52,762 nt of DNA from positions 1 to 52,762 of the forward strand of contig CAISER010000020.1 of NCBI GenBank assembly GCA_903884375.1, written 5' to 3'. The translations under genes were made by a program, and so were the position numbers. Below, in pieces: positions 9,817 to 40,280 of this stretch. Each line of letters begins with the position of its first letter. The first letter of the stretch is position 1. This DNA is from Candidatus Collierbacteria bacterium. Lineage in GTDB: Bacteria > Patescibacteriota > Microgenomatia > UBA1400 > MFAQ01. The notes beneath the pieces were generated by a model, which searched no databases, had not been told where the DNA came from, and worked only from the letters and a program-made list of their open reading frames with translations.

Positions 9817-10683
9817 ATGAAGGAAAAAATCTTAGTTACCGGCGCAAATGGTTTCATAGGATCCGGATTGGTTAAAGAACTTGAAGATGGAGGTGCGAGG
9901 GTGATCAAACTGGATAGGGCTATTCTGACTCAACCGGATGTTTTAATTCGAACGATAAAAAGAATTAAACCTTCAAAAATATTTCATCTAGCCGCTTACG
10001 GAAATCATTATGATCAAAAGGATGTTAGGGAGATATATAACGCAAATGTCTATGGAACATTTAATCTATTACAGGCAGCCTCTCAGGCAGGAGTAAAGTG
10101 TTTTGTTAATACCGGATCTTCAAGCGAATATGGAAAGAAGGATGTTCCAATGAAAGAAGATATGGTCCCTGAGGCAAATACAATGTACGGAGCTACAAAG
10201 GTCGCCTCAACATATCTATCTAAGGCATTCGCATCTGAGTATGGGCTTCCGGTCGTAACAGTCAGACCGTTTTCGGTTTATGGCCCTGGGGAAGCAGAAC
10301 ACAGATTTATTCCTACGGTCATAAGATGCTGTCTTTCAGGCCAACCACTTAAACTTGCCCATGGAGTTCACGATTGGATATATATAGATGATTTCGTTAA
10401 CGGAATGATAATTGCAGCCAATAATATCAGGAAATTATCTGGTGAGGTTGTCAATATTGGCACAGGGAAACAGTATTCCAATGAAAAAGTCGTTGAAGAA
10501 GTTCAGAATATCTGTGGTATAAATGTAAAGAAAGAGGAGATTGGCAGTATTAGAAACTTCGATACCATAACTTCATGGGTTGCTGACAACGAAAAACTTA
10601 GGTCGTTTGGATGGAAACCCAAAATTGATCTTAGAAACGGTATCGAAAAAGTAATAAATGCTAAAAAGACAAATAAATCATAG
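9817..10683 (+). CDS. NAD-dependent sugar epimerase/dehydratase (extended SDR)
   Basis: 288 aa. ILVTGANGFIGSGLV (GxxGxxG), TGSSSEYG, YGATKVAS (YxxxK catalytic motif). Confidence 0.85.
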   Translation: MKEKILVTGANGFIGSGLVKELEDGGARVIKLDRAILTQPDVLIRTIKRIKPSKIFHLAAYGNHYDQKDVREIYNANVYGTFNLLQAASQAGVKCFVNTGSSSEYGKKDVPMKEDMVPEANTMYGATKVASTYLSKAFASEYGLPVVTVRPFSVYGPGEAEHRFIPTVIRCCLSGQPLKLAHGVHDWIYIDDFVNGMIIAANNIRKLSGEVVNIGTGKQYSNEKVVEEVQNICGINVKKEEIGSIRNFDTITSWVADNEKLRSFGWKPKIDLRNGIEKVINAKKTNKS

Positions 10684-11368
10684 AAGAAGAATTATCGAGC
10701 TAATAAAAGAGGCTGATACTACACATATTGGCTCTGCATTGTCTGTAGTTGATATCATCGACGCTATCTACAAAGTAAAGAAAAAGAAGGAGAAATTTAT
10801 CCTAAGTAACGGACATGCAGCTGCAGCGCTATACGTTATTCTTGAGAGCTACGGAATAGTAAAAGATCCCAAGATCAATATCTTGGGTGTTCATCCGGAA
10901 AGAAATCCTCAAATCGACATTCATCTGTCTACCGGTAGTCTGGGACAAGGTCTGCCAGTTGCAGTCGGTATGGCAATGGCAGATAGATCAAAAAATGTTT
11001 ATTGTTCCATATCTGATGGTGAGTGCGCTGAAGGAAGTATTTGGGAAGCAGTGTCAGTTGCTTCAAAATATAAGCTTAATAATCTAAAAATAGTAGTTAA
11101 TGCTAATGGATATGCGGGTTACGAGGAAATCAATTCTGATAGTCTTAAATCAAAATTCCACAGTTTTGATTGTGATGTTGTTGATGTAAATGGACACAAT
11201 ATTGGAGAAATCATCAGAGGACTTGCCATCGAAACAAAAACACCATTACTGGTTTATGCAAGAACTAACGTCGAGCAACTTCCCTTTTTAAAAGGGCTTT
11301 CTGCCCATTACTACAAAATGACAGAGGAAGATTATAAATTGGCAATTAAAACATGGTCAAAGAATTAG
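10658..11368 (+). CDS. Transketolase-like ThDP enzyme, N-terminal (diphosphate-binding) subunit
   Basis: 236 aa. HIGSALSVVDIIDAIY, SNGHAAAALYVILESYG, STGSLGQGLPVAVGMAMA, ISDGECAEGSIWEA. These match the PP-domain signatures of split transketolases. Confidence 0.8.
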   Translation: MLKRQINHRRRIIELIKEADTTHIGSALSVVDIIDAIYKVKKKKEKFILSNGHAAAALYVILESYGIVKDPKINILGVHPERNPQIDIHLSTGSLGQGLPVAVGMAMADRSKNVYCSISDGECAEGSIWEAVSVASKYKLNNLKIVVNANGYAGYEEINSDSLKSKFHSFDCDVVDVNGHNIGEIIRGLAIETKTPLLVYARTNVEQLPFLKGLSAHYYKMTEEDYKLAIKTWSKN

Positions 11369-11868
11369 ATTTGAAAGAAAGATATGACACCATGAGGGGG
11401 TGGTTTGCATATGAGCTTCATAAACAGATGGTCAAAAATCCCAAGATTTGGTTAGTAACAGGTGATCTTGGTTATGGAATGTTTGATAAGATCAAAAGAG
11501 ATTTTCCAGAGAGGTTTGTCAACGTTGGAGCGGCCGAACAAACATTGTTGGGTGTTTCAATAGGATTGGCTTACGAAGGAATGATTCCCATCACTTATTC
11601 AATAACACCATTTTTGCTCTATCGGCCGTTCGAAACAATTAGAAATTATGTAAATAGAGAAAAAGTTCCGATTATCTTGGTTGGAGGAGGAAGAGATAAA
11701 GATTATGGACATGACGGCTTTTCTCACTGGTCAGATGAAGACAAAAGAGTAATGACGTTATTCCCAAATATCATTTCCACTTGGCCCGAGAGTAAGGAAA
11801 GTATTCCCGATCTTTTTGAAACGATTTTGTCAAGTACCGTTCCCTATTATCTTAACTTACGAAGATAA
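11353..11868 (+). CDS. Transketolase-like ThDP enzyme, pyrimidine-binding subunit (short, no C-terminal domain)
   Basis: 171 aa. FPERFVNVGAAEQTLLGVSIGLAYEGMIPI and GHDGFSHWSDEDKRVMTLFPN match the transketolase Pyr domain. The protein ends right after this domain. Overlaps the upstream subunit by 16 nt. Confidence 0.75.
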   Translation: MVKELDLKERYDTMRGWFAYELHKQMVKNPKIWLVTGDLGYGMFDKIKRDFPERFVNVGAAEQTLLGVSIGLAYEGMIPITYSITPFLLYRPFETIRNYVNREKVPIILVGGGRDKDYGHDGFSHWSDEDKRVMTLFPNIISTWPESKESIPDLFETILSSTVPYYLNLRR

Positions 11869-12564
11869 TTATTTTTTCTTAGTCAGTACAAGTTCCCAAT
11901 TATAATAGCCGAGGATGGGGATTCTTAAGGCTCTGATCGTTTTCCAAAATAGATTATCACGTTTTTTTATTGATACACCCAGTCTTTTTGTAATAAAATC
12001 TATTAAAGGAAACCGCTGTGTTGTTTTGTTACTCACATTAATGGTGAAGAATTTTTTCAATAAATTTGTCAGTTGCTCATCATTTGTATATTCCCTTAGA
12101 TGTGTTGGGTCAAGTACCCAACCGGTGTTATTTTTGTAAAAATACCAACCATACCACTTCTTGAAGACCGTCGATAAATAGACAGTTCCTTTATCTTTAA
12201 GGACTCTATTAAAAGAGGTTGTCATCTTTTCATCATCTACATGCTCAATAACTTGTGTTGAAATTACCAAATCTTGGCTATTGTCCCCGATCGAGTTCAT
12301 TGTTTCGGCAGAGTCGACTTTAGCATTAAATTTTGGAAAATTTCTCTTTACTATTTCTATTCTGTCCTTTGAAAGATCGATGGCATTTACCTTTAGATTC
12401 CCTAATAGTCCTTCTTTATTGAGGGCATATAAAATGGATCCGTCTCCGCAGCCGCAATCGAGAATAGAATCAAATTTATGATTTTTGAATAATCTCAAAA
12501 GTATTTTTGGGGCTTCACCTGTATAGTACTGTGGAGCGAATTTGGCGTACTTCTCGATATTCAT
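11869..12564 (-). CDS. Class I SAM-dependent methyltransferase
   Basis: 231 aa. ILDCGCGDGSILYAL (motif I), AIDLS, VISTQVIEHVDD, GTVYLST. Confidence 0.8.
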   Translation of the reverse strand: MNIEKYAKFAPQYYTGEAPKILLRLFKNHKFDSILDCGCGDGSILYALNKEGLLGNLKVNAIDLSKDRIEIVKRNFPKFNAKVDSAETMNSIGDNSQDLVISTQVIEHVDDEKMTTSFNRVLKDKGTVYLSTVFKKWYGWYFYKNNTGWVLDPTHLREYTNDEQLTNLLKKFFTINVSNKTTQRFPLIDFITKRLGVSIKKRDNLFWKTIRALRIPILGYYNWELVLTKKK

Positions 12565-13304
12565 TTTAATTGTTCTTGAATTTTATCCAATACTTTTGTT
12601 ACTTTAATGGCATGTTCAAGTCCGGTAACACATTTTTCACCTTTTATAAAGGCAATAAACGACCGGAGCTCATTTTCCAGGGGGGCTATCGACTGTATAA
12701 TAGTGTCGTCGAAGTCTACTGAATCATATTCACCATGGGCTACGATCTTCCTTAATTTTTCTGAGTAATTCCAACCTGTTTCGATATGACATTCCGATTT
12801 TTCATATTTTAATGTGATGGATAAATTTTCATTGATCTTTTCGGCTTTTATCACTTGTGGCTCACCCAAAAAATAAACGGCAAGAGACACTCCGTGGGGG
12901 GCAAGATACCATAACGGAGTAGTATTTTCCTCGGCATGGATATTACATAGTTTAATATCCAATCTATTTATTTTGCCGACTTTTTTCAGTTTTTCCATGA
13001 GTCCTTTGTTATACAAATATATATGTCCAACCATTACTTTATTGTTGTTTATCTCAAGTGCATCCTTTAAAGAAGTTGCAAATGGTTTTTCGATAAGAAG
13101 ATATTTGTTGGGAAACTCTTTGGCAATTTCAGTGTGAGTGGAGTCCGGAGTGGCAATTATTATTCCATTAATATCATTATATTGCTGTAGCTCCTTATAG
13201 TTTCTTGTCACCACATATTTTATTTCCACATCCGGAATATTATTAACAACGTTAAGATAACGACTTCCCCATTTCCCCTTTCCAATCAAAGCAAGTGTAA
13301 TCAT
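12561..13304 (-). CDS. Gfo/Idh/MocA-family NAD(P)-dependent oxidoreductase (short form)
   Basis: 247 aa. ITLALIGKGKWGSRY Rossmann start, IIIATPDSTHTEIA, LLIEKPFATSL (EKP motif). Confidence 0.7.
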   Translation of the reverse strand: MITLALIGKGKWGSRYLNVVNNIPDVEIKYVVTRNYKELQQYNDINGIIIATPDSTHTEIAKEFPNKYLLIEKPFATSLKDALEINNNKVMVGHIYLYNKGLMEKLKKVGKINRLDIKLCNIHAEENTTPLWYLAPHGVSLAVYFLGEPQVIKAEKINENLSITLKYEKSECHIETGWNYSEKLRKIVAHGEYDSVDFDDTIIQSIAPLENELRSFIAFIKGEKCVTGLEHAIKVTKVLDKIQEQLK

Positions 13305-13307
13305 TAT

Positions 13308-14318
13308 TTAAACAACATATCTTGATTTATTTGTATTTTCAAAATCAAGAATATCGTATATATTATCCAATTTTGCACCGACAATAATATCAAAACCAGG
13401 AAACCCATAATCACTTCTAAATAATATTGGTCTTCCGTCGTCATAATCATTCTGTATAAGAACCGTTTTTCTTTCGCGTATATCACCCTTATGTTTCATG
13501 TCTTTCATATCGGGAATACAATTTACGACGTGTTCTTTTATCTTTTTGTAATCACCACCTTCAGGGGTTAATTCTACATGATGTATGGTGTGAAGACCTC
13601 GTTTGGGAAAAGGATAAATTGAAAAGAAAGAACCGTCCATTATTGTAATTGATACATTTTTAAACTTTTCAGGTACTTCCACTAAGGGCATAACGGTATC
13701 TTCGTTCCTTATTGGGAGTTCGGGAAGGTTTGAGTTTATTAATAACTTATTTGTGTCAGCGTAGATACAGGCTATAATTTTTTTTGCGTTTATTTCTCTA
13801 TCTCTTAGATATATCTTTCCTTCACTAACTTTTTTCACTTCAGTATTTAATAATATATCAACGTGTTTTAATTTCTCAATCAAAATCTTTTTAATTTTTT
13901 CGGAATCAAATACTCCTTCGTGTCCTAAAAAAATATCTTCAACAAATTCCAGATTAAACCATTTTTTAAGATTTTCCGGACATTCATATAAAGGACAGCC
14001 AACTTTTTTACATGCTTTCTTATATTTTTTTGCATCAGTTTTTCCATTGCGACCCACGGCATAGAACATTGTGTAGTCATCAGATACTGCATCTTTAAAC
14101 TCTGCCATGAATCTTGGAAAATTTATATGGGCTGCAAAAGCAGTTTTATAACTTCTTGGATAGTGATAACCATTGTGTACTCTTGCCTGATTATTAGCTG
14201 AGGCTTTTTGCATTAAATCATTTTCTTTTTCAATTAAAAGAACCTTTCCTTTCAGATTTTGGGCAATCATACAACCAAAAAATCCACCGCCAATCACAAT
14301 ATAATCATAATTATTCAT
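13308..14318 (-). CDS. FAD-dependent oxidoreductase
   Basis: 336 aa. YDYIVIGGGFFGCMIAQNLKGKVLLIEKE is a GxGxxG...E dinucleotide-binding fold at the extreme N-terminus. The substrate cannot be inferred. Confidence 0.7.
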   Translation of the reverse strand: MNNYDYIVIGGGFFGCMIAQNLKGKVLLIEKENDLMQKASANNQARVHNGYHYPRSYKTAFAAHINFPRFMAEFKDAVSDDYTMFYAVGRNGKTDAKKYKKACKKVGCPLYECPENLKKWFNLEFVEDIFLGHEGVFDSEKIKKILIEKLKHVDILLNTEVKKVSEGKIYLRDREINAKKIIACIYADTNKLLINSNLPELPIRNEDTVMPLVEVPEKFKNVSITIMDGSFFSIYPFPKRGLHTIHHVELTPEGGDYKKIKEHVVNCIPDMKDMKHKGDIRERKTVLIQNDYDDGRPILFRSDYGFPGFDIIVGAKLDNIYDILDFENTNKSRYVV

Positions 14319-14341: not shown

Positions 14342-15370
14342 TTATTGTTTCCAGTTGTCTCTTGTTGATTCTCTAGGCTCTATTTTACCTCTAATCCAGC
14401 CATAGATATAGATAAATAAAGTGGAGTAACAAGCCACCGGGTGAAAAAGCCAAGTCGCATCTTTTTTTCTTAGAAAACCTATTAGTGTTTGGATAAGGAT
14501 TGGAAAGATTAATATGCATTCGAAAGTAAATAATATTATCTTTGAAAGAAAAGATTGCTCCCAGTTTATTTCTCTATTATTCTTTGATTTATGAAAGGAC
14601 ATATCATTTATGCGACGAAGTTGTTTCTTAAAAAATTTTCCGGCATCTGCTTCAACAAAAGTATGAATAATCCCTGTTTTGACTTTGGCTATTTTTACCT
14701 CCCCTTTTGTTTTAATTATTTTTAATAAAATATCGATATCAAAAAGGTAATTGGCACCCTTGATGGCATTTTTCAATATTGATCTTCTAAATATAGTTCC
14801 ATTGGCACCGATTGTGGGTATTGGCTCATGATTGAGAGTAATTTTTAGATATTTCCCTTTGTTTTCTTCAGGAAATTTTAATCCTGTCCATTTGTTGGTG
14901 ATATATGAATATCTATCATAGTTCCCAATAAACAAACATATTGGATCATTCATACCAAGCAGGGCAAAATAACGAGTGAGATAAGGATCATTTTTCCTGT
15001 AGGTGTATTTAATTGGTTCCGAGGCAATGATTTCTTTATCACCAAAAGGCATTACCATGTCCTTTAACCAATGTCGATTGGGTAAAATATTATCCGAATC
15101 GATGAGAGCAATCAAATTATGTTTGGCAACTTTTACTCCAACAGCCTTTCCGGCTTCACCAGTTTTTAACTTGTTTTGGACTATTATGGCGTGATATTTT
15201 TTGGATATTGATAAAGTAGCATCTGTCGAACCGCCATCGGCAATGATGATTTCAATTTTGTTTTTGGGATATTTTTGTGTGGTGATTGAATTTAAACATT
15301 TATCCAATACAGAAGCAGCGTTTAAGGTAGGAATAACTACCGAGATTGATGGTAGTTTTGTTTGCTTCAT
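14342..15370 (-). CDS. GT2 glycosyltransferase with C-terminal membrane helices
   Basis: 342 aa. ISVVIPTLNAASVLDKCLNSITTQKYPKNKIEIIIADGGSTDAT and LIDSDN (DxD). Two hydrophobic helices near the C-terminus. Confidence 0.85.
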   Translation of the reverse strand: MKQTKLPSISVVIPTLNAASVLDKCLNSITTQKYPKNKIEIIIADGGSTDATLSISKKYHAIIVQNKLKTGEAGKAVGVKVAKHNLIALIDSDNILPNRHWLKDMVMPFGDKEIIASEPIKYTYRKNDPYLTRYFALLGMNDPICLFIGNYDRYSYITNKWTGLKFPEENKGKYLKITLNHEPIPTIGANGTIFRRSILKNAIKGANYLFDIDILLKIIKTKGEVKIAKVKTGIIHTFVEADAGKFFKKQLRRINDMSFHKSKNNREINWEQSFLSKIILFTFECILIFPILIQTLIGFLRKKDATWLFHPVACYSTLFIYIYGWIRGKIEPRESTRDNWKQ

Positions 15371-15373
15371 AAA

Positions 15374-16930
15374 TTAATCGTTTTCCCCGTGCTGACCAAG
15401 CTGTTTGGGTGAGAAATCGGTAAGGTGACCTAAAAATCTCCACCCGGCCATAAAGAGAAATTTTATATCGTCAATTCTTTTTATTTCCCTTATCTTGCGC
15501 CAAATAAACTTGGGGTTGAGGAAGGACTTGTAGAGCTCTTGGGTGAGTTCCATTACCTGTTTTTCCGTAAGTGGCGATTTCATAATAGGCTTCCTCATGT
15601 CGTAATCCTCATAGTTCTCTGACAATAACCAACCTTTTTCTTTACATTCTTTCCAAAGAGGAGTTCCCGGATATGGAATAACAACTGTTGCTTGGAGAGT
15701 GTCGACATAACCTTTTTCAAAACATTTTTTGGCAAGAGCAACTGTACGCTTGGCGTCTTTGTAAGTCTCCCAAGGATATCCCATCATTATAGTGAGATGT
15801 GGGTCAAGTCCGCCTTTTTTCGCCATACGAACACCTTCTTCAATTTGTTTGACTTTGAGACCCTTGTCTAGATGATCAAGTGTCTTCTGATTTGCAGATT
15901 CCATTCCGTATAGGATAAAGCGAAAATTTGCCTTACCCATTAAGTCATAATGTTCTTGTCGAAGCGCGTTGAGACGCATATTGCAACTAAAAACAACTTT
16001 TTTGTTGTAACCTGAATCAATTAATAGATTGCAAAAATCGATAAGTGGTTTTCCAATCATAAAAGTACCCGCATCGTCAAAAATTTCTTTAACGTGATAT
16101 TTATCGACGACGTGCTTTACTTCATCAAAAAGTCTTTGAGGAGTAAAGCGGCGATATGAACCTATTGGATTAATAGTATGATCCCAAACGCAAAATGTAC
16201 AACGATTCCACCAACAATCACGACCAGAGTACATATAAGTAGCTGGTGTGTATTTATAGTTCCCATTGTAAACGGAGTAGAGTTCCCATTTGGTTAGGTC
16301 TCGATCAATAAACGGTAATTCGTTTAGATTATGAGCAACAGACGGTTTTCCCGAATTTGCATAAACTATCTTTCCTTTTCTTTTAATTGTGGCGAATGGT
16401 TTTTGTTTTATCCGCTTGTCGGATGCTCTCCACCATACTCCACCTTCGAGTTTTGTTTTTTTTGTTAAATAATCGAGAAGATTGACGATGACAAAATCAT
16501 AGTCACCACCAGTGATTAGATAATCTACTTTGCTGTTGTCAAACATTTCTTCCGGGGCAAAGGTGACGTGATCACCTACCCAAACAGTGATTAGTTTTGG
16601 AAAAACTTTTTTGAGATCGTTAATTATTTCCCAGTGTTTTTTGACTATTGGGGATTTGGTTTCGACCATTAAAACATCCGGTTTCCATGCCTTCAACTCT
16701 TTGAGCCATTCCTTGTGTGTTTGTTCGGCAGCAATTCCATCCATCCACTTTACTTTGTAGCCATGTTTCTTTAAATTGGAAGCGGCATAGGCCGGAACCA
16801 TGGGATAGATATATGTCTTTGCGTTGAAGTACTGGAATTGCCTATTTTGTGAAAGAAGAGCAACTCCTTTGTCAGAAAGAATGGGAGGGTACCCGATTGC
16901 AACACGAAGAGGATTTTTTGTTGAGTTCAT
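15374..16930 (-). CDS. B12-binding-domain radical SAM enzyme (class B-like)
   Basis: 518 aa. The N-terminal ~170 aa has a flavodoxin-like B12-binding layout (YPMVPAYAASNLKKHGYKV...DVLMVETKSP...VWVGDHVTF). Next comes the cluster motif SGRDCWWNRCTFCVW, then a TIM-barrel-like region (FILYGMESANQ, HLTIMMGYPWET). The Cys spacing as read is C-x4-C-x2-C, not the canonical C-x3-C-x2-C. Confidence 0.8.
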   Translation of the reverse strand: MNSTKNPLRVAIGYPPILSDKGVALLSQNRQFQYFNAKTYIYPMVPAYAASNLKKHGYKVKWMDGIAAEQTHKEWLKELKAWKPDVLMVETKSPIVKKHWEIINDLKKVFPKLITVWVGDHVTFAPEEMFDNSKVDYLITGGDYDFVIVNLLDYLTKKTKLEGGVWWRASDKRIKQKPFATIKRKGKIVYANSGKPSVAHNLNELPFIDRDLTKWELYSVYNGNYKYTPATYMYSGRDCWWNRCTFCVWDHTINPIGSYRRFTPQRLFDEVKHVVDKYHVKEIFDDAGTFMIGKPLIDFCNLLIDSGYNKKVVFSCNMRLNALRQEHYDLMGKANFRFILYGMESANQKTLDHLDKGLKVKQIEEGVRMAKKGGLDPHLTIMMGYPWETYKDAKRTVALAKKCFEKGYVDTLQATVVIPYPGTPLWKECKEKGWLLSENYEDYDMRKPIMKSPLTEKQVMELTQELYKSFLNPKFIWRKIREIKRIDDIKFLFMAGWRFLGHLTDFSPKQLGQHGEND

Positions 16931-16948
16931 TGTTTTATATTCTATTAT

Positions 16949-17218
16949 TTATGGATAAATTTGTTTTCCTAACTTATTTTTTAGAATTATTGCAGAGACC
17001 GGACATGAACGAGTAGCCTCTTTTATTTTTTCTAGGCTGTCTCCTTCAGGGTTAATGATAACCGCTTTCCCGTCAGATTCACGAAGAAAAAATGTGTTTG
17101 GAGCTGCAATGGTACATGGCCCAGCCGAAATGCACTTTGAAAGATCAACCATGATGGTGATTCCATCACTTCGTGTTGCTTTTGTTGCTTGGTTGCTTTT
17201 GTAATCCGTTGTGGTCAT
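16949..17218 (-). CDS. Small mono-cluster ferredoxin, 3-Cys type (CxxAxxC...CP), probably [3Fe-4S]
   Basis: 89 aa. VDLSKCISAGPCTIAAPNTFF...SCPVSAI carries only three Cys in the arrangement C-x2-A-x2-C...C-P. Its ATG overlaps the upstream GT2 stop by 4 nt (17215-18). Confidence 0.75.
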   Translation of the reverse strand: MTTTDYKSNQATKATRSDGITIMVDLSKCISAGPCTIAAPNTFFLRESDGKAVIINPEGDSLEKIKEATRSCPVSAIILKNKLGKQIYP

Positions 17219-18225
17219 CGTTTTAGTTTAGCAGTAAACAAAAAGCCTTTAATAAACTTGGCTCCGTACCAAAGATGAGTAATAAAAATAGTAGGAATGG
17301 AAATAAGGGCCTGACGAATACTACCAGATTTTTTATATATCCAGTTGGCGTTTCCAATTAACGCCAGAAAATAAATGAAGAAACAAATAATTCCGAAATT
17401 ACGTATTGAAAAAATTGCTGGGTTAAACCAGAGATAGGAAAAAGAAATAAATACCAAACCTAATAACATAAGAGAGGGAAGAAAATAGATTGGCCGTAAT
17501 GAAGTTGCAGGAAGAATCTTGGCAAAAAATCCTCGGTGAAGGCCAAAATTACCGTTTTGTCTTAGATGAGATTTTAGTATCGGACGACGGTGATGAAATA
17601 CTACGGCTTTGGGTTCATAGATTATTTTCTTCTTTAATTTGTGGGTTAGGTCGAGACAAAGTTTGGTGTCTTCTCCCGGCCAGTAGTTTGAGTCGTAACC
17701 ACCAACAGATAAAAAATCATCTCTTTTTATAGAAAGGTTCATTGAAGGATAATCATCAACAAAGCGTTTTTTGCCTGGTAAAAAGCGATAAATATAAATT
17801 CCGGCACCAATTGGTGACGCCGAAGCCCATCCGGATGCTTCTTCTTTCCAGGAAACATTTGGTGGAGTAATTCCCGGACCTCCAACTCCGGTAATATATT
17901 TGTTTTTGAAATGAGGGACAATTTTGCTGAGCCAATCTGACTTTGGCTCTGTGTCGTCATCGATAAAGGCAACGATTTCTCCTTTGGCAATCTTGGCACC
18001 ATGGTCTCGTTTTTTTGCCGGTGGAGTATATTTTCCTTTGTAATCAACGATTTTTAGTTTGGGATGTTTAATCTTAAGAGGATGATCGGTTTCCAATATT
18101 ATTTCGAAATTTTTGTATGTTTGTTTTTTTAGCGCTGCCAAACACTCCAATAGATACTGATTATTTCCATTTTTTTTGTATTCAATTAAAATAACCGAAA
18201 CTAAGGGATTGTATTTTTTAGTCAT
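17215..18225 (-). CDS. GT2 glycosyltransferase with C-terminal transmembrane region
   Basis: 336 aa. VSVILIEYK...KKQTYKNFEIIL, FIDDDTEP (DxD), GEDTKLC. The last ~100 aa contain 3-4 hydrophobic helices. Confidence 0.8.
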   Translation of the reverse strand: MTKKYNPLVSVILIEYKKNGNNQYLLECLAALKKQTYKNFEIILETDHPLKIKHPKLKIVDYKGKYTPPAKKRDHGAKIAKGEIVAFIDDDTEPKSDWLSKIVPHFKNKYITGVGGPGITPPNVSWKEEASGWASASPIGAGIYIYRFLPGKKRFVDDYPSMNLSIKRDDFLSVGGYDSNYWPGEDTKLCLDLTHKLKKKIIYEPKAVVFHHRRPILKSHLRQNGNFGLHRGFFAKILPATSLRPIYFLPSLMLLGLVFISFSYLWFNPAIFSIRNFGIICFFIYFLALIGNANWIYKKSGSIRQALISIPTIFITHLWYGAKFIKGFLFTAKLKR

Positions 18226-19039
18226 AACGGAGTTTTAATCTGGAATCACCCTGCCAACGGTCGATATGGTTGTCGTCGTAATGATGCAAAATGTAAGTGC
18301 GATAGATGATGGCCAAGTAATCGATAGCAAAATTTTGGACTGAAGAAAATCCAATATTGCTTTGAAAATTGTAGTTAATTTCTACTGGAGACTCGTAAAT
18401 TTTTTTAAAACCGAGATGGTTGGCAACGGCGAGTAGTTCTAAGTCAAAGGCCCAACGCTTGACCATGAGACGAGGAAGAACTTTAACCAATACTTTTCTT
18501 TTAAACACCTTTAAGCCTGTTTGGGTATCGGAAACATTTAGTCCAAAAAAGAAACGGGTGGCTTTTTGAACCAGGAAACTTAAAATTTTTCTTCTCCAGG
18601 GATAGTAAACCTTACTGGCATGGTGACGTTTGGAACCAATAATAATATCGGCGTCGTACCATTTCATATGTTCAAGAGCCAAGCCAATACCTCTCGCGTG
18701 GAGGTCGGAACCAGCGTCAATGAAAGCAATAATCCCCCCTTTAGCTCGTGCCATACCGTAACGTACCGCATAACCCTTACCTTTGTTTGTTGGATAAAAA
18801 TAGATTTTGATATTATCGCCTTTGATTTTTTTGGCACGTTCTACAGTGTGATCTTTAGCATTTTTCCTTCCGTCAACAACGCAGAGTAGTTCATAAGAGC
18901 GACCTAGTTCATCCAGATATATTTTTAGTGAGGATAGATCACGAAGTATTGTTTTGCAGTTGTAGGCCGGAACAATAACAGACAGTAGACCGGGGTCCGA
19001 TTTGAGAACTTTTATTTTTTTAGTGGAGTGTCTTGCCAT
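18218..19039 (-). CDS. GT2 glycosyltransferase, polyprenyl-phosphate sugar synthase-like (DPM1/ALG5/GtrB-like)
   Basis: 273 aa. LSVIVPAYNCKTILRDL, TNKGKGYAVRYGMARAKGGIIAFIDAGSDL, IIIGSKRH. The layout resembles Dpm1/GtrB-type enzymes. The usual DAD reads DAGSD here. Confidence 0.55.
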   Translation of the reverse strand: MARHSTKKIKVLKSDPGLLSVIVPAYNCKTILRDLSSLKIYLDELGRSYELLCVVDGRKNAKDHTVERAKKIKGDNIKIYFYPTNKGKGYAVRYGMARAKGGIIAFIDAGSDLHARGIGLALEHMKWYDADIIIGSKRHHASKVYYPWRRKILSFLVQKATRFFFGLNVSDTQTGLKVFKRKVLVKVLPRLMVKRWAFDLELLAVANHLGFKKIYESPVEINYNFQSNIGFSSVQNFAIDYLAIIYRTYILHHYDDNHIDRWQGDSRLKLRYD

Positions 19040-19050
19040 CTATTTTCGGA

Positions 19051-20310
19051 TTATACTTGTTTTGGCTTTGAAAGTCTTCTGGAAACATAAATCGAAAGGG
19101 ATAGAAAAAGGAATAGCTGAAGATAGAAATTAGCTTGAACAGTGATGGAAAAAGAATTCTTAGATATATAGAAGACTATCGGTTGGAGAATAGTGGTGAT
19201 GAGCAATAATATGTTTGCTTGAGGACGATTGGTAGCCATTAAATAGGAAATAATGAATAAACTGAAGGCAAAGAAAGCCATGGAAAAAGCAAAATATGCA
19301 AGTAATGGAGATGCTTCAAGGTAGGCCGGACCTGAGAGTAAATTGATGATGAACTTGGGAAACAGACTAAAAATCCCTGCCCCTATCGTACCAAAAAATA
19401 ATATTACCGAACCAAGTTTGAAAAAAATTGAATTTGTTGAGGTATTTTTAGCATGACGATGAGCAGCGATTGGGAGCACTAAGGCGGAGATTGGAGTAAG
19501 CCCGAACAGAATCATTCTCCCGAGAATTGATAGTGCCGAGTAAAGTCCTGAGGTGTGTGAGTCAAAAAAAGCTCGAACCATTAAAACGTCTGTGGAGATT
19601 AACGATGCCACTCCAAGTGCGTAGATAAAACTGTAACCGGTAAAACCTTTCAAATTAAATTTATTTTTCTTACCGGTTTCCATCTTTGGGTAGACATTTT
19701 TTTTGATTGATAGAAATAGCATAATGGAAGTTATCGCTCCGGCAAGAATTTGACCAAGAATGGCTCCCGTGGCACCAAGCCCTAGTTTTATAAACAAAAC
19801 CGCAAGAAGAATCGTCGAAACTGTACCAATAAAACCAACAATCGTCTGGAAGACGAATTTTTGAAAAGCGATGATGTAGGAATTGACAATGGTTTGAAAA
19901 AGAGAAATAAAGACACTAATTCCCAGAACAATAAAGGCTATTGAGTGTGCTTTAAATACAAAAGCCAAGGGGCCGGAAAGAATAATCAAGAGAGTACCAA
20001 GTATTATGACAATTGGAGTAATGAGTTTGAGAAGATAATAAAAGAATTGATTGATTGATTTGTCGTCCCCCTTTCCTTTGTAATCCGAAACAAATTTAGT
20101 GACGACGTTGGCAACAGTTCCCGTGGGAATGGCTAAGAGATTGGTAAGACTGAGATAAGAAAGAAATTCACCATACTGCCCCGGTAATAGGAGTCTTAAA
20201 AGAACCAAATGAAAAATATACCTCGAAAAACTTAGAATAAAGTTCCCGAAATAATAAAAGGCACTAGAACGAGCAGTGGGTGTAGAAAAGGCTCGTAAAA
20301 CTTTCTTCAT
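19051..20310 (-). CDS. MOP-superfamily oligosaccharide/polysaccharide flippase (Wzx-like)
   Basis: 419 aa, about 12 hydrophobic helices. The N-terminal FYYFGNFILSFSRYIFHLVLLRLLLPGQYGEF pattern is typical of polysaccharide biosynthesis (Polysacc_synt) flippases. Confidence 0.7.
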   Translation of the reverse strand: MKKVLRAFSTPTARSSAFYYFGNFILSFSRYIFHLVLLRLLLPGQYGEFLSYLSLTNLLAIPTGTVANVVTKFVSDYKGKGDDKSINQFFYYLLKLITPIVIILGTLLIILSGPLAFVFKAHSIAFIVLGISVFISLFQTIVNSYIIAFQKFVFQTIVGFIGTVSTILLAVLFIKLGLGATGAILGQILAGAITSIMLFLSIKKNVYPKMETGKKNKFNLKGFTGYSFIYALGVASLISTDVLMVRAFFDSHTSGLYSALSILGRMILFGLTPISALVLPIAAHRHAKNTSTNSIFFKLGSVILFFGTIGAGIFSLFPKFIINLLSGPAYLEASPLLAYFAFSMAFFAFSLFIISYLMATNRPQANILLLITTILQPIVFYISKNSFSITVQANFYLQLFLFLSLSIYVSRRLSKPKQV

Positions 20311-21526: not shown

Positions 21527-22394
21527 ATATTTCGTTTTTGTAAAGTTCCCAGAGTTTCATATAGGAAAAAGCGTGATGAAGCCCTGAATAGAGAGAAAAG
21601 ACAAATCCCGGAAAGCCATCCAAAAAACCCCGGCGGCGAAAATACAAATTTAGGAAAGTACCGGCTGGTTTAAAAAATAGAAACAAAATAGTATTGAGAA
21701 TAGTTATTTTTAGACCGGCTTCTTTGTAGAATTTGGCTTGTAGGCTGGAGTACCGATTTTCTCTTAATAAATAGCGACTGAAATCGGGAGTGGCGAAGTG
21801 GTCAAGATCGGTTTTCAACCAACCTACTGGTCCATCAACTTTCATTTGTTCATGGACATCCTTTGCCGGAAGAATGGCTTTCCCTTTTTGGAAAAGACGG
21901 ATAACAGGATCGGGGTACTGACCGGTATTTTTTAGATAACGATTAAGGAAATAATTTCTTCGCGGTAGCCAATAAGCAGAAGCAGGAGAGTTTAGTTTGC
22001 GTGGTTCGGAGAAGATTTTGATAATTTTGTTAATGGAATGGCGGAAAGGAGATATCCAATTATCATAGCCAAAAGATTCCCCTTCCAAAATTCTAATGAT
22101 TTCCTTTTTCATTTCCGGAAGAACCCTTTCATCGGCATCTAACTGAAGAATCCAGGTGGACTTCGCTTTATTAATCGCTTTATTTTTGGTGATATGAAAG
22201 ACTTGTTCGTGAGGTTCTTTATAAACTATGGCTCCAAGTGATTTAGCAATATCTCTGGTTTTATCGGTGCTTTGTTCGTCGACAACAATTATTTCATCAA
22301 CCCAGTTTTTGACCGACTCGAGACAGTCTTTGATGTTATTTTCTTCGTTGAAAGTGGCCAGTACCACCGAAATTGATTGACGTTTATTTTTCAT
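21516..22394 (-). CDS. GT2 glycosyltransferase (LgtF/WaaE-like subfamily)
   Basis: 292 aa. ISVVLATFNEENNIKDCLESVKNWVDEIIVVDEQSTDKT, LQLDADE (DxD), and a C-terminal amphipathic segment GFPGFVFSLYSGLHHAFSYMKLWE shared with the ORFs at 42922 and 44636. Confidence 0.8.
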   Translation of the reverse strand: MKNKRQSISVVLATFNEENNIKDCLESVKNWVDEIIVVDEQSTDKTRDIAKSLGAIVYKEPHEQVFHITKNKAINKAKSTWILQLDADERVLPEMKKEIIRILEGESFGYDNWISPFRHSINKIIKIFSEPRKLNSPASAYWLPRRNYFLNRYLKNTGQYPDPVIRLFQKGKAILPAKDVHEQMKVDGPVGWLKTDLDHFATPDFSRYLLRENRYSSLQAKFYKEAGLKITILNTILFLFFKPAGTFLNLYFRRRGFLDGFPGFVFSLYSGLHHAFSYMKLWELYKNEIYAK

Positions 22395-24031
22395 TTGGTT
22401 GAGATGAACTTATACATAACTTCACCTGAAAGTGATTTTACCGTGTTTATGATTTTTGTATCGTCCACTTTTTCATCGGCTGACACTATTAGGGCATTGG
22501 GTATATTTTTATCTTGTTCATAATTAATAGCTCGGAATTCGTATTTGTCTAATTTTCTTCCTGTTGAAAAACCATATTTGTCAGGTGAGGACATTACAAT
22601 TTCTTTTTGAAGTTTTTCCGGTGGGTATTTAGTGAAGAAGGCGATCAGAATATATGGCTGATCATAACGGTCGGAAATAATGATGTGGTCATATTTTTCA
22701 TAATTAGCTTTGGTATAGACGGCAATCTGTTCAAAACCATATTGCCAAGCTATCGGAAGCTCTTTGGGGTAGTGGATATAGTACATATGTAGATAGCGGC
22801 CGAAACCGTAGACAGTTCCTAAAATCACAAAGGTGAGTAATGCCGGGAGAAGTTTTTTTGCATATTTTTTGACAAATAAACAAGTTTCAATTAAGCCTAT
22901 GGCAATGATTACCGAAAATGGCACAGACATGTTTTCGGCTCGTAGTGCGTGAGGGGATTGATAGGTAAGGGCAGCCGCAAGTGGAGAGATAAAAAGCCAT
23001 GAAAGAATGGTTTTTTTGCCTGGTGTGTCGAATTTAATGACATAAAGAAATCCTAAGACAAAGAAAGGGAGAAAAAATAGTAGATTCTCCCCCATTTCCG
23101 GAACTCGACTTCTGGGAATGGCATCACCATCAATAAACTGAAAATCAGGAGAAAAATGAGATTGATAATTTTGGACAAAACGCATGGCATAACTTAGAAA
23201 TTTGTTGTGAACTAACTTAACAAATAGACTATCATTTTGGTGTTCAATTCTAAAATTAGTGGATTGCCATGCCGGACCGGGATCAGAAAAAATCGAGACA
23301 CCGGAAAATCTTGACTGACCTTCTTTGCTTAACATCTGGAAAGCAATCGGAAGAGCGAGAACAACGGTAAAGATAATGGCTAAAATGGTTCTTTTAAAAT
23401 TTGATTTTGCAAAAAAACTCTTGATTTCTTTAAAATAAATTATGGAAAATACAAGAATTAAGGCCGGTGTGATGACCCTGGCCGAGTGATATGTATAAAG
23501 AGATAAAACGGCGGATATAACAAAAACAAAAAGATGTTTCGTGTTTTCAAATGATTTATAAAGAAACAGAAGGGCCATAAGAATGAAAAATGTTGCTACG
23601 TTTACTTCCCAACCGCCACGAGAAAACTGAAGATGCCATGGAGAGATGGCCAAAATGAAAGCACTAAGCTCCGGAAGAAATGATTTTCTTTTTTCCGGGA
23701 ATAAATGTTTTACCAGTAAAAATAAAATATAAACACTAATGGTGCCCAATAAAGCCGACGGCAAACGAACAGATGTTACGGATAATCCCATTGCTTTGAC
23801 AAATGGAAGAGCAAGGTAAACATAGAGAGGTGGTTTGTAATCATCAAAAGAACGAAAAACCAAAGGCCAAGAAACCGAGTGTTCGTCTTTGCCGGTTTCG
23901 ATCAAAGACCAAGCATTGTAGCCTAGGGCTGCTTCATCGGCATTAAGACCGGCGGGAAATTTTGATAACATGAAGAGACGAAGAATTCCGGCAAGAAGAA
24001 TGATGGCAATAATGAGTTTATTTCTTTTCAC
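22391..24031 (-). CDS. GT-C glycosyltransferase, ArnT/PMT-like (GT39/GT83-like), tandem paralogue 1 of 6
   Basis: 546 aa. First loop LNADEAALGYNAWSLIETGKDEHSVSWPLVFRSFDDYKPPLYVYL, then SPWHLQFSRGGWEVN and many TM helices. C-terminal soluble domain WQYGFEQ...DQPYILIAFFTKYPPEKLQ. GTGA overlap with the upstream paralogue. Confidence 0.8.
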   Translation of the reverse strand: MKRNKLIIAIILLAGILRLFMLSKFPAGLNADEAALGYNAWSLIETGKDEHSVSWPLVFRSFDDYKPPLYVYLALPFVKAMGLSVTSVRLPSALLGTISVYILFLLVKHLFPEKRKSFLPELSAFILAISPWHLQFSRGGWEVNVATFFILMALLFLYKSFENTKHLFVFVISAVLSLYTYHSARVITPALILVFSIIYFKEIKSFFAKSNFKRTILAIIFTVVLALPIAFQMLSKEGQSRFSGVSIFSDPGPAWQSTNFRIEHQNDSLFVKLVHNKFLSYAMRFVQNYQSHFSPDFQFIDGDAIPRSRVPEMGENLLFFLPFFVLGFLYVIKFDTPGKKTILSWLFISPLAAALTYQSPHALRAENMSVPFSVIIAIGLIETCLFVKKYAKKLLPALLTFVILGTVYGFGRYLHMYYIHYPKELPIAWQYGFEQIAVYTKANYEKYDHIIISDRYDQPYILIAFFTKYPPEKLQKEIVMSSPDKYGFSTGRKLDKYEFRAINYEQDKNIPNALIVSADEKVDDTKIINTVKSLSGEVMYKFISTK

Positions 24032-25674
24032 TTGTTTTTTGTTTTGATGATTCTGAGCATGATTTTTCCATCGGGATAATAAACGTCTTCATGTTTTTCG
24101 ATTGTGGGCAAACTAAAATCGAAGTTATTGTCGATATTGCCGATTGTGCCGACAAAAATAGTATTGTATTGATTACTAACTTCGCTTTTTCCAAACTGGT
24201 GGAACTCAACAATGTCACCGATATGACTTACCATTCCCACATCAAAGCCTCCTGTTTCAAAGGAGTTTTGTTTTTGATATTCAGCCGGATTAAATTGAGA
24301 ATAAAAAAGATAGAATATATATGGCTGTCCCCAAACATCCGTCATGACGACTTTGCTTTCCGGGTATTGATTGATAAACTTCATTGCTTGTTTGTATCCA
24401 TACTGAAATTCTTTGGTGTAGACAAAGTTCCCATGGATAAAAAGAAGATCAGAAAGATAAAAGTATCCGATGATGGTTAGAAAAGAAGAAAAGACAAAAA
24501 TCAATTTTATTTTTTGCCAAGCATAAAACGCTCCACAACCACAAATAATAGCTAAAGGAATTACCATAAATAAACTCCTGACTGTTGAAAATTCGGATAA
24601 AGTTAGAGATCCGGGGAGTGGGGATAGAAGTAGTAAACCAAGAATGAAGATAGATATTTTTGAAGGAAACATTTTTACTAAAAATGCCAAACCTAAAATC
24701 ACCCAGATAAAATCAAAAACCAACAGGACTCCGGAACCAGGAACGTGACCTCTATCGACCGGTGCATACCCTTCATAAAAGAGAAGTTTGGGTGAAAAAT
24801 GTTTGAGGTAACGACTAGCAACCAGCCTGGTTGTCAGCTGTGACTGATTGTGGAAAAGGGAGAGAGTAAATTTGTTGCTATTATCAGTAACAACCGTTTG
24901 TTCCGAAACTCCCGGTTTGTAACCAAAAATACTTAGACGTTTTAAGCGGTTGCCTGTTTCTCCAGTAATAGAACTAATAAATAAATAAAGAACAATACTA
25001 ATGGATAATAATAAAAAGATCAGATTTAATGGTTTTTTGAGATGATGATGTATGTTTGTTTTGATCCCTTGCCAAAAAATTAAGAGTGTAAATATCAGCA
25101 CAACCGGTGTAAGAATCTTGGCTGCTTGGTAAGTTATAAAGGTCAGTAGCCCTAATAAAATAGAAGAATTGAGAAATTTTCCTTCCCTTGCAAATCTTAT
25201 TAAAAAATATATCGAGTATAAAAGTAGAGTGACGAAGACATTGGTTTCCCAAGCTCCTCTTGAAAAATGTATGTGAAGTGGCATTATGGCAAGAAAAAGT
25301 GCAGACAACGAAGCTAAAAAAAGATTCTTCTTTTCGTCCTTAAAAAGTTCTTTGACCAAAAGAAATACACCAAAAATTGCCAACAGACCAAAGATGACAC
25401 TAGGGAAACGTACCGCGAACTCGGTGAGCCCAAAAAGGGCAATCGAAGGAATGGTAAGGTAAATGTATAACCCAGGTTTGTAGTCACCAAAACTTTTGAA
25501 AATTATGGGAAGAAGTTTTCCATATTCGTCTTTGCCGGTTTTAAGAATGGAAAAAGCGTTATACCCAAGAGCGGCTTCGTCCCAAGTAAGTGCACCGGGA
25601 ATTGCACCGAGCTGATATAACCTTAAAAAAGCGCCTAATAGAAGAGCAATAATTAATAACCAGTACTTTTTCAT
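24028..25674 (-). CDS. GT-C glycosyltransferase, ArnT/PMT-like, tandem paralogue 2 of 6
   Basis: 548 aa. LTWDEAALGYNAFSILKTGKDEYGKLLPIIFKSFGDYKPGLYIYL; MPLHIHFSRGAWETN; C-terminal FQYGYKQ...GQPYIFYLFYSQFNPAEYQ. Confidence 0.8.
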   Translation of the reverse strand: MKKYWLLIIALLLGAFLRLYQLGAIPGALTWDEAALGYNAFSILKTGKDEYGKLLPIIFKSFGDYKPGLYIYLTIPSIALFGLTEFAVRFPSVIFGLLAIFGVFLLVKELFKDEKKNLFLASLSALFLAIMPLHIHFSRGAWETNVFVTLLLYSIYFLIRFAREGKFLNSSILLGLLTFITYQAAKILTPVVLIFTLLIFWQGIKTNIHHHLKKPLNLIFLLLSISIVLYLFISSITGETGNRLKRLSIFGYKPGVSEQTVVTDNSNKFTLSLFHNQSQLTTRLVASRYLKHFSPKLLFYEGYAPVDRGHVPGSGVLLVFDFIWVILGLAFLVKMFPSKISIFILGLLLLSPLPGSLTLSEFSTVRSLFMVIPLAIICGCGAFYAWQKIKLIFVFSSFLTIIGYFYLSDLLFIHGNFVYTKEFQYGYKQAMKFINQYPESKVVMTDVWGQPYIFYLFYSQFNPAEYQKQNSFETGGFDVGMVSHIGDIVEFHQFGKSEVSNQYNTIFVGTIGNIDNNFDFSLPTIEKHEDVYYPDGKIMLRIIKTKNK

Positions 25675-29001: not shown

Positions 29002-29026
29002 ATAATCATTATAATTCCTTGATGAG

Positions 29027-30733: not shown

Positions 30734-30737
30734 ACCC

Positions 30738-40230: not shown

Positions 40231-40280
40231 ATCATTAGTTTAACAGTGTTTTACCATTCACGGTTATTATTTAAAACTTC

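Follow-up and report, generated by a model that had tools for sequence, protein, structure and literature searches.

What does a radical SAM protein with a B12-binding-like domain do in the middle of a run of glycosyltransferase genes? The question is raised by a 52,762-nt stretch of DNA from Candidatus Collierbacteria (the window, by which we mean the whole stretch that was analysed), in which a preliminary description had noticed such a protein behind a small ferredoxin. We show here that this protein has the domains, the cluster motif and the modelled fold of a class-B-type radical SAM enzyme, as had been claimed, and that the gene order around it is conserved. Its open reading frame (15374..16930, minus strand, as are all the genes discussed here) encodes 518 amino acids, in which an N-terminal Rossmann domain is followed by a radical SAM barrel and then by a helical domain at the C-terminus, and no transmembrane segments are predicted in it. 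The radical SAM core (aa 237-399, 15734..16222), which is also marked by invariant alignment columns, reaches 63.1 bits with Pfam PF04055, whose cut-off is 29.5 and which all 30 aligned family members match, and equivalents of the SAM motifs are conserved in the same 30-sequence alignment as FDDAG (aa 284-288), GMES (aa 342-345) and MGYPWET (aa 383-389). The B12-binding-like domain (aa 38-141, 16508..16819) contains a near-invariant G119-D120-H121; it scores 31.5 bits against PF02310, 0.6 short of the cut-off of 32.1, and 26 of the 30 aligned family members match that family. An AF2 model of the protein (pLDDT 91.2, pTM 0.91) has MgmA, AprD4, OxsB, TsrM, CysS and TokK as its best PDB fold matches in Foldseek, with OxsB, TsrM and TokK also supporting the Rossmann domain. 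The structure prediction that had been proposed is thus consistent, at the level of a model, with a class B fold: the matches to radical SAM cores point to the partial TIM barrel of the superfamily, and PF02310 in the relatives together with the whole-chain fold points to the N-terminal B12-binding domain of the class.

The second feature singled out earlier was the Cys motif RDCWWNRCTFC, with one residue more than usual between the first two Cys. Rereading the minus-strand DNA at 16190..16216 gave tgt tgg tgg aat cgt tgt aca ttt tgc, that is C239-WWNR-C244-TF-C247 (CX4CX2C), flanked by R237-D238 and W249. All 120 close homologues keep this motif with its spacing, as do all 80 loci from species-level genomes, which share 50-85% identity and come from several phyla, so that the question of its conservation among orthologues is answered, and the conservation is far beyond chance. 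A different conserved Cys triad was looked for as well and not found: among 30 aligned sequences of 34-85% identity no Cys other than C239, C244 and C247 is invariant, and the same alignment holds no alternative conserved Cys cluster or auxiliary cluster, C300 alone being additionally near-invariant. Some homologues carry inteins placed precisely at the cluster Cys, an insertion point that marks a critical site. Judged from these alignments, the triad is the true site of the predicted cluster in this family, and it supplies the three Cys of a SAM-binding [4Fe-4S] cluster in a documented variant of the CX3CX2C spacing. While the odd spacing is thus genuine and invariant, it is already known from other class B enzymes and we do not regard it as a novelty. 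CX4CX2C occurs in OxsB (PMC9204698), and GenD1, a sugar C-methylase that had been brought in as a canonical comparison, is itself Cx4Cx2C (PMC4340712). The x4 spacing is also present in queuine lyase (PDB 6P78), and across the family and its sister clades the loop ranges over x3, x4, x7 and x9 to x20, the sister clades having x3, x7 or x9 to x20.

The Cys loop also bears on cobalamin. The loop of the window protein, RDCWWNRCTFCVWDH, aligns without gaps to the loop of cobalamin-bound OxsB, RGCDYSRCTFCPRDH (C313-x4-C318-x2-C321). By alignment coordinates read together with the published description, R237 and W249 would correspond to TokK Arg204, a cobalamin contact, and TokK Trp215, which lies between cobalamin and the cluster (PMC9204698). 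We consider that the N-terminal Rossmann domain probably holds cobalamin, although the fold alone can lack it, as AprD4, which has the same fold, binds none (PMC12931638). No cobalamin uptake or salvage genes are present in the 52,762-nt window. These comparisons divide between two kinds of chemistry. In the first, the protein would be a cobalamin-dependent sugar C-methyltransferase, with methylcobalamin as the source of a methyl radical equivalent for a carbon radical on the sugar and the ferredoxin delivering two electrons per turnover. Methylases make up the majority of the class B enzymes that have been characterised (PMC9204698, PMC12931638), the Cys spacing is common to GenD1, and a hydrophobic residue between cobalamin and cluster, where W249 would sit, is typical of methylases (PMC12931638). 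Against this, the Cys loop is closest to that of OxsB, a ring-contractase. In the second, the protein would catalyse a rearrangement without methylation, as HpnJ, OxsB and Cds do, and would turn the hexose installed by the preceding glycosyltransferase into a carbocyclic or branched sugar by contraction or rearrangement; cobalamin would serve as a radical mediator or electron sink, while the ferredoxin would tune or accept electrons. The resemblance to the OxsB loop speaks for this, but OxsB has an Arg in place of the family's invariant W249.

The best-scoring curated family is HpnJ (TIGR03471), which matches over nearly the full length at 163.7 bits (E 6.9e-48), 57 bits above the next curated match, and BchE (TIGR02026) matches at 106 bits. 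That the two top curated matches are both non-methylases argues against a C-methyltransferase, and the lead of HpnJ argues for a rearrangement. Some relatives carry HpnJ or BchE labels in their source annotations, but by the curated cut-offs the protein is neither. The HpnJ score compares with a cut-off of 577.6, and ten more distant representatives also stay below it; BchE failed its cut-off of 481, which makes the source label 'anaerobic Mg-protoporphyrin IX monomethyl ester cyclase' on some relatives look like automatic mis-annotation. In addition, many distant class B proteins also match HpnJ first, so that the ranking may reflect a 'central' profile. A ladderane-lipid radical SAM model gives a further weak match. 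All curated models score well short of their cut-offs, and no member of the orthologous group is known to have been characterised. The group is large, occurring in at least 570 species-level genomes, mostly of uncultured Patescibacteria and anaerobes. On the non-CPR branch no cultured organisms were seen among the 120 relatives listed, and those named by organism are all MAGs. Our literature search on the family in CPR/Patescibacteria and on CPR cobalamin use found nothing relevant.

The strongest new result of this analysis is the gene context. Glycosyltransferase genes of the GT2 type flank the radical SAM and ferredoxin pair on both sides, as had been described, and the full order is a Wzx-like flippase, GT2a, GT2b, the optional ferredoxin, the radical SAM gene and an optional GT2c. 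GT2b (17215..18225) is a 336-aa enzyme with two C-terminal transmembrane segments that matches lipid-linked-sugar transferases of the AglG, EpsD and PglI type; GT2a (18218..19039) is a soluble protein of 273 aa that, within the PDB, best matches ArnC and GtrB, both polyprenyl-phosphate glycosyltransferases. The flippase candidate (19051..20310; 419 aa, about 10 transmembrane segments) is of the Wzx/PST-like type, with a weak Polysacc_synt match, and GT2c (14342..15370), immediately downstream of the radical SAM gene, is a membrane-anchored GT2 of 342 aa. This order recurs in CPR, Chloroflexi, Nitrospinota, Deltaproteobacteria and Kuenenia. GT2b lies directly upstream of the radical SAM gene in 58 of 65 loci, including those of Deltaproteobacteria, Chloroflexi and Nitrospinota, and even a CX3 sister protein of the family retains the upstream GT2; GT2a is found in 45 of 61 loci, the flippase candidate in 36 of 58 and a clear GT2c orthologue (>300 bits) downstream in 17 of 58. 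Identity between the window and a deltaproteobacterial locus, where the genes overlap by 4 nt, is 44% for GT2b, 53% for the radical SAM protein and 48% for GT2c; the 48% and the 4-nt overlap of GT2c with the radical SAM gene are those of locus L085. The link to glycan genes proposed from the window is therefore strong and crosses phyla, rather than the family being tied to non-glycan functions elsewhere. With the Cys triad conserved and this link in place, neither of the two findings that the preliminary description had named as speaking against it was made.

Other neighbours do not take part in the conserved order. An FAD (DAO-type) oxidoreductase, a GFO/IDH/MocA oxidoreductase and a class I SAM methyltransferase follow the cassette (11869..14318). 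The two oxidoreductases have zero matches near the radical SAM gene in other loci, and the methyltransferase has scattered, mostly weak matches that are strong only in L078 and L065. Considered as conserved partners, the FAD oxidoreductase, the GFO/MocA oxidoreductase, a PIG-L deacetylase, a transketolase, a HAD phosphatase and a 322-aa protein were all rejected, each being absent from the 84 loci or present in few of them and thus lineage-specific. These neighbours touch both chemistries discussed above: class I SAM methyltransferases already in the locus speak against a further methylating enzyme, and an HpnJ-like rearrangement would lack a conserved deacetylase partner, the PIG-L deacetylase occurring only in L085. 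In contrast, the adjacency of GT2b and the radical SAM gene favours the rearrangement, as HpnJ directly follows the GT2 HpnI, acting on a lipid-linked hexosamine (PMC13459092).

The context also bears on whether the substrate is a sugar at all. The enzyme might instead act on something other than a sugar: the polyprenol lipid carrier or, for instance, a peptide or protein destined for later glycosylation. Isoprenoid lipids are modified by the class B enzymes HpnP and HpnR and by the GDGT enzymes (PMC13459092), the ladderane-lipid model matches weakly, and GT-C protein or lipid glycosyltransferases are abundant near the gene. However, no precursor-peptide or isoprenoid synthesis gene is conserved beside the radical SAM gene in the related loci, and the translationally coupled sandwich of GT2b, radical SAM protein and GT2c reads most simply as successive steps on one growing glycan. 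A non-sugar substrate therefore seems to us very unlikely, and the best reading is that the enzyme probably modifies a sugar carried by a lipid-linked glycan intermediate.

The ferredoxin gene (16949..17218) encodes a mono-cluster protein of 89 aa with exactly three Cys (C29-ISA-GP-C35 ... C72-P), as first described, and is predicted to bind [3Fe-4S]. It matches Fer4_13 at 43.7 bits against a cut-off of 24.5 and carries the CxxXxxC...CP pattern in which X is not Cys; 46 of 47 ferredoxin orthologues are of the same three-Cys CxxAxxC...CP type, in which X is Ala. The [3Fe-4S] protein FdII of Desulfovibrio gigas is matched at E 7e-7. PDB sequence matches to the designer repeat proteins 'Cake' and 'Scone' are spurious, being sums of weak repeat matches. 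The close packing of the genes was borne out on the DNA, with the ferredoxin ATG overlapping the GT2b stop codon by 4 nt as ATGA and its TAA stop lying 18 nt ahead of the radical SAM ATG. The further proposal of a self-contained module of reductant and enzyme stands in part. The ferredoxin gene accompanies the radical SAM gene in 39 of 68 loci (about 57%, missing from 43%) and is confined to CPR, being absent from all non-CPR loci examined, and it is GT2b, not the ferredoxin, that is the near-universal partner.

How electrons flow between the two proteins bears on the chemistry. Ala at the middle position presumably makes the window ferredoxin an obligate 3Fe form. The potentials of [3Fe-4S] clusters are usually much higher than the reduction of a radical SAM cluster or of Co(II) calls for, so this ferredoxin may instead accept electrons or serve another enzyme; it is not an obvious low-potential donor for the radical SAM cluster or for the Co(II)/Co(I) couple. 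A high-potential [3Fe-4S] ferredoxin would suit a role as acceptor or mediator, which speaks for a rearrangement. A dedicated ferredoxin would also suit the stoichiometric electron demand of a C-methyltransferase, although a [3Fe-4S] protein is a poor candidate for reducing Co(II) to Co(I). In a study of BchE, moreover, MeCbl was not generated by ferredoxins (PMC13598231).

Taken together, we think it rather likely that the window encodes a cytoplasmic class-B-type radical SAM enzyme, predicted to be active and belonging to an uncharacterised orthologous group, that works within a membrane-associated glycan assembly line. Its substrate, its use of cobalamin, the direction of electron flow and its chemistry are what we infer. 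At the inner membrane face, GT2a, resembling ArnC and GtrB, and GT2b would assemble a sugar or short saccharide on polyprenyl-phosphate or another lipid acceptor. The [4Fe-4S] cluster held by C239, C244 and C247 would cleave SAM, and the resulting 5'-deoxyadenosyl radical would take a hydrogen either from the sugar that GT2b has attached or from the nucleotide sugar that serves as its precursor, after which the N-terminal Rossmann domain, probably with cobalamin, would finish the reaction. The modified intermediate may then be extended by GT2c, flipped by the Wzx-like protein and used outside the membrane by neighbouring GT-C enzymes. In CPR genomes the co-transcribed [3Fe-4S] ferredoxin would act as a dedicated one-electron partner, while larger genomes may use housekeeping carriers.

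As to the reaction itself, the C-methyl installation proposed from the window becomes one possibility among several, given that HpnJ and BchE, the nearest curated models, are non-methylases. C-methylation as in GenD1 or MoeK5, by a cobalamin-dependent sugar C-methyltransferase, is a serious candidate that we hold at somewhat under an even chance. A rearrangement of the carbon skeleton, redox-neutral or oxidative, of the kind known from HpnJ or OxsB is less likely, and so, to a like degree, is some other outcome such as epimerisation, dehydration or oxidation. In its most specific form, in which the cassette of GT2b, radical SAM protein and GT2c, with the [3Fe-4S] ferredoxin in CPR, carries out a cobalamin-dependent carbon-skeleton rearrangement of a lipid-linked hexose, a ring contraction of the HpnJ, OxsB or Cds kind that yields a cyclitol or branched sugar, the proposal is rather improbable. 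If it held, the surface glycans of at least 570 species, many of them CPR, would contain a carbocyclic or C-branched sugar that has yet to be described, and envelope biogenesis in reduced genomes would depend on scavenged B12.

The assembly-line reading has consequences of its own. To our knowledge, CPR cell envelopes are essentially uncharacterised. If the reading is right, a class B radical SAM enzyme would be part of primary cell-envelope glycan assembly, as opposed to antibiotic or hopanoid tailoring, an unusual sugar (C-methylated, branched or carbocyclic) would be predicted on the CPR cell surface, and envelope biogenesis in minimal genomes would be tied to external cobalamin and a dedicated ferredoxin. 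The cassette of GT2a, GT2b, ferredoxin, radical SAM protein and GT2c, together with the flippase, is compact enough for heterologous expression.

Several characterised systems invite comparison. HpnJ has the same two-domain architecture, and the substrate on which it acts is a hexosamine installed on a lipid by a GT2; Cds, compared here by way of its description in a review, converts a lipid-linked hexose to calditol (PMC13459092). However, the closest HpnJ-like representatives use CX3CX2C in place of the CX4CX2C of the window family, and the setting differs: no hopanoid genes (hpnI, hpnK, shc) occur in the window or the related loci, GT2b is not matched by the HpnI model, and a conserved deacetylase is missing. 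OxsB (PDB 5UL2/5UL3/5UL4), the cobalamin-dependent radical SAM ring-contractase of oxetanocin A biosynthesis, acts on a sugar ring (PMC9204698) and matches the fold of our model at E 4e-19, at a sequence identity of only ~15%. In addition to the CX4CX2C spacing common to both, there are clear differences: OxsB has 744 aa with an extra N-terminal domain, Arg323 at the position of W249, an HD-domain partner protein and a nucleotide substrate, and it lies outside glycan operons. AprD4 (PDB 6FD2), a radical SAM 1,2-diol dehydratase of the aminoglycoside paromamine, likewise has a sugar substrate and is the best PDB sequence-profile match (E 3e-21) and second-best fold match, but it has a different Cys motif, shares 13% identity and uses no cobalamin (PMC12931638).

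GenD1 and GenK (gentamicin) and MoeK5 (moenomycin) are class B sugar C-methyltransferases that act on growing glycoconjugates, and HpnJ, Fom3 and MoeK5 co-cluster in similarity networks (PMC9204698). The likeness of GenD1 and GenK to the window protein is known by the Cx4Cx2C spacing of GenD1 alone (PMC4340712), and these three enzymes differ in belonging to actinomycete secondary-metabolite clusters, with no dedicated ferredoxin described for them in the cited papers. The ferredoxin of the window, finally, shares with D. gigas FdII the three cluster Cys and the CP motif. It differs from FdII in the Ala at the middle position, in an N-terminal extension of ~22 aa and in being genomically dedicated to a cassette of radical SAM and GT2 genes.

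The radical SAM protein considered here (rSAM; 15374-16930, minus strand, 518 aa) is an intact predicted radical SAM enzyme with the fold of class B, the cobalamin-type enzymes. In Pfam it matches Radical_SAM with 63.1 bits (cut-off 29.5) and B12-binding with 31.5 bits, just below the cut-off of 32.1, and the B12-binding model matches 26 of 30 aligned family members. The AlphaFold2 model, for which 30 sequences were aligned, has high confidence (pLDDT 91.2, pTM 0.91), and its top PDB fold matches (MgmA, AprD4, OxsB, TsrM, CysS and TokK; E 1e-21 to 1e-13) all share the class B Rossmann-plus-radical-SAM architecture. These domains and fold matches uphold the class B assignment of the preliminary description, whose account of the ORFs, motif, junctions and flanking GT2 genes also proved correct in every element when the DNA was re-read. 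AprD4, one of the top matches by structure and by sequence, has a class B-like fold without cobalamin binding (PMC12931638). Invariant across the family alignment (30 sequences, 34-85% identity) are C239, C244 and C247, together with SAM-binding elements, namely E282, F284 and D286 (FDDAG), G342, E344 and S345 (GMES), and the MGYPWET strand. Because C300 is the sole further near-invariant cysteine, an auxiliary cluster is not indicated. No TM segment was predicted in rSAM.

Among curated models, rSAM scores best with HpnJ (E 6.9e-48, 163.7 bits) and next with BchE (106 bits), far under the respective cut-offs of 577.6 and 481 bits, so that neither identity holds; some source annotations nevertheless label its relatives as HpnJ or BchE. 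HpnJ was also the first match of ten more distant representatives, none of which reached the cut-off. Given these scores, rSAM falls within a wide and uncharacterised part of class B sequence space that resembles HpnJ and BchE. Among 1.84 billion cluster representatives searched, 382 matched at E <= 1e-30, and when one genome was scanned for each species, at least 570 genomes proved to encode a relative. The nearest relatives (~85% identity) are from Candidatus Collierbacteria (Microgenomates), and these, which place the window in CPR/Patescibacteria, are followed by WWE3, Roizmanbacteria and Gottesmanbacteria (60-70%), and then, at ~50-55%, by Chloroflexi, Nitrospinota, Deltaproteobacteria/Thermodesulfobacteriota, Elusimicrobiota, Candidatus Kuenenia and one Methanobacteriota MAG. 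Among the relatives listed no cultured host was found, all those with an organism name being MAGs, and our literature searches found no study on the rSAM family or on B12 use in CPR. The enzyme class is a known one, in which rSAM is a new and widespread but uncharacterised member.

The main new result is the conservation of its genomic setting across phyla. ORFs called in 80 genome loci were searched with the window's proteins, and one order recurs: a Wzx-like flippase (candidate at 19051-20310 in the window), GT2a (18218-19039, 273 aa), GT2b (17215-18225, 336 aa), in some loci a ferredoxin, then rSAM and in some loci GT2c (14342-15370, 342 aa), all on the minus strand in the window. GT2b lies on the same strand within 3 kb upstream of rSAM in 58 of 65 loci, GT2a within 5 kb upstream in 45 of 61, the flippase within 6 kb upstream in 36 of 58 and the ferredoxin within 1.6 kb upstream in 39 of 68, and a clear GT2c orthologue follows within 3.5 kb downstream in 17 of 58. 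On a deltaproteobacterial contig (L085), 4-nt overlaps occur at both the GT2b/rSAM and the rSAM/GT2c junctions, with GT2b ~44%, rSAM ~53% and GT2c ~48% identical to the window's proteins, which argues that the trio was inherited together across phyla. The proposed link to glycan genes stands, since GT2 neighbours recur across phyla, and we show that rSAM has a fixed place between two membrane GT2s of a lipid-linked glycan pathway, a conserved setting that lends itself to experimental testing. According to the locus survey, three proteins encoded downstream in the window, an FAD oxidoreductase, a GFO/MocA oxidoreductase and a methyltransferase, are not conserved partners, nor are the PIG-L deacetylase and transketolase seen in other loci. 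In nine loci, several from WWE3 (L002:6957-7925; e.g. also L001, L013, L014, L020, L023, L043 and L072), a 322-336-aa protein lies between ferredoxin and rSAM; it has no confident Pfam match and only a weak one to DUF4015 (putative glycosyl hydrolase).

In the window, GT2 genes stand on both sides of the ferredoxin and rSAM pair. The solved proteins closest to GT2a are ArnC and GtrB, both polyprenyl-phosphate glycosyltransferases; GT2b, with two predicted C-terminal TM segments, weakly matches AglG, EpsD and PglI, transferases that extend lipid-linked sugars; and GT2c is predicted to be membrane-anchored. The entire window is a glycan island, mainly on the minus strand, in which GT-C (PMT_2) genes number about ten, GT2 and GT4 genes are numerous and Wzx-like genes occur twice. 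The GT-C array is unusually dense: six head-to-tail PMT_2-type paralogues (22391-32375, minus; 27-35% mutual identity) are accompanied by one pair (38650-41840, 37% identical) and two single copies (4676-6877 and 50201-51916). A short, split transketolase-like pair (9817-11868, plus; Transketolase_N of 236 aa and Transket_pyr of 171 aa, without C-terminal domain) adjoins an NAD-dependent epimerase/dehydratase and converges on the glycan operon, and a split transketolase likewise lies upstream of the cassette in L085; the pair might serve in TPP-dependent branching of sugars and not in pentose-phosphate metabolism. Three large ORFs of the island, of 1065 aa (45555-48752, minus), 756 aa (36423-38693, plus) and 727 aa (1590-3773, minus), had no match in Pfam at E <= 1e-3. 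The window showed no gene for cobalamin uptake or salvage, but its 53 kb are too short to settle scavenging.

The ferredoxin ORF (16949-17218, minus, 89 aa) lies upstream of rSAM in the same direction; its ATG overlaps the preceding GT2 stop codon as ATGA, and its stop codon is 18 nt from the rSAM start. It has exactly three cysteines (C29-x2-A-x2-C35 ... C72-P) and matches Fer4_13 as well as mono-cluster ferredoxins, among them D. gigas FdII, a [3Fe-4S] protein. Of 47 orthologues, 46 retain CxxAxxC...CP, which confirms the three-Cys type originally assigned. In CPR genomes rSAM comes with a private ferredoxin, which was absent from all non-CPR loci examined. To call the two a self-contained module, as the preliminary description did, is an overstatement at 39 of 68 loci and none outside CPR; a CPR-only ferredoxin would fit reduced genomes without general low-potential carriers. 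The potential of a [3Fe-4S] cluster is usually too high for reduction of Co(II) to Co(I). In a study of BchE, ferredoxins supported turnover and did not support MeCbl formation (PMC13598231).

The cluster motif, read on the minus strand at 16190-16216 (tgt tgg tgg aat cgt tgt aca ttt tgc), is C239-WWNR-C244-TF-C247. This CX4CX2C triad is kept in 120 of 120 close homologues and, as [RK]D-CWW[NG][RK]C[TSR]FC-x-W, in 80 of 80 species-level genome loci (50-85% identity), so that with its invariance in the alignment it is well established as the conserved cluster site. In four relatives outside the window (P0122, P0123, P0125 and P0126; 665-972 aa), Hint inteins, in some cases accompanied by a LAGLIDADG homing endonuclease, sit exactly at the cluster cysteines, either at the third (CTF|C...) or before the first, and the extein loop of P0123 is CX18CX2C. 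Inteins usually insert at functionally critical sites. None of the three cluster cysteines survives in five further full-length relatives outside the window (P0137, P0144, P0146, P0149 and P0155; 35-39% identity), which may be non-catalytic paralogues; P0137 and P0146, the two scanned with Pfam, still match B12-binding and Radical_SAM. The novelty first seen in the x4 spacing was overstated, as OxsB has CX4CX2C (PMC9204698), the queuine lyase (6P78) has CIWGKCSFC, and the sugar C-methylase GenD1, the preliminary description's own canonical comparison, has Cx4Cx2C (PMC4340712). Across the wider family radiation the first spacer varies in length, with x3, x4, x7, x9 and up to ~x20 all represented, and a CX3 sister protein (37% identity) has the same upstream GT2 as rSAM; therefore, spacer length does not define function.

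GT2a and GT2b would assemble a lipid-linked sugar at the cytoplasmic membrane face, and rSAM would generate a 5'-deoxyadenosyl radical and, with the help of cobalamin, functionalise this sugar or its nucleotide-sugar donor; GT2c would then extend the product and the flippase export it for use by the GT-C enzymes. The functionalisation is quite possibly, if tentatively, a C-methylation: methylases make up the majority of class B enzymes (PMC9204698, PMC12931638), GenD1 is a precedent, and R237 and W249 of rSAM, mapped from alignment coordinates and the same two papers, correspond in position to TokK Arg204 and Trp215, suggesting a methylase-like environment. Chemistry that is neither methylation nor rearrangement appears somewhat less likely. 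An HpnJ- or OxsB-like rearrangement is likewise somewhat less likely than methylation; the HMM ranking, with HpnJ first, argues for it, as does the OxsB-like Cys loop of rSAM, which aligns without gaps (RGCDYSRCTFCPRDH in OxsB vs RDCWWNRCTFCVWDH in rSAM), and the HpnI(GT2)-HpnJ pair acting on a lipid-linked hexosamine provides a precedent (PMC13459092). On L085 (260-1747, 5817-6725), a second, distant B12-domain radical SAM protein (21% identity, CX3CX2C), a HAD phosphatase and a PIG-L family deacetylase precede the cassette, none of them conserved across 84 loci; the deacetylase is reminiscent of the HpnK step in the HpnIJK pathway.
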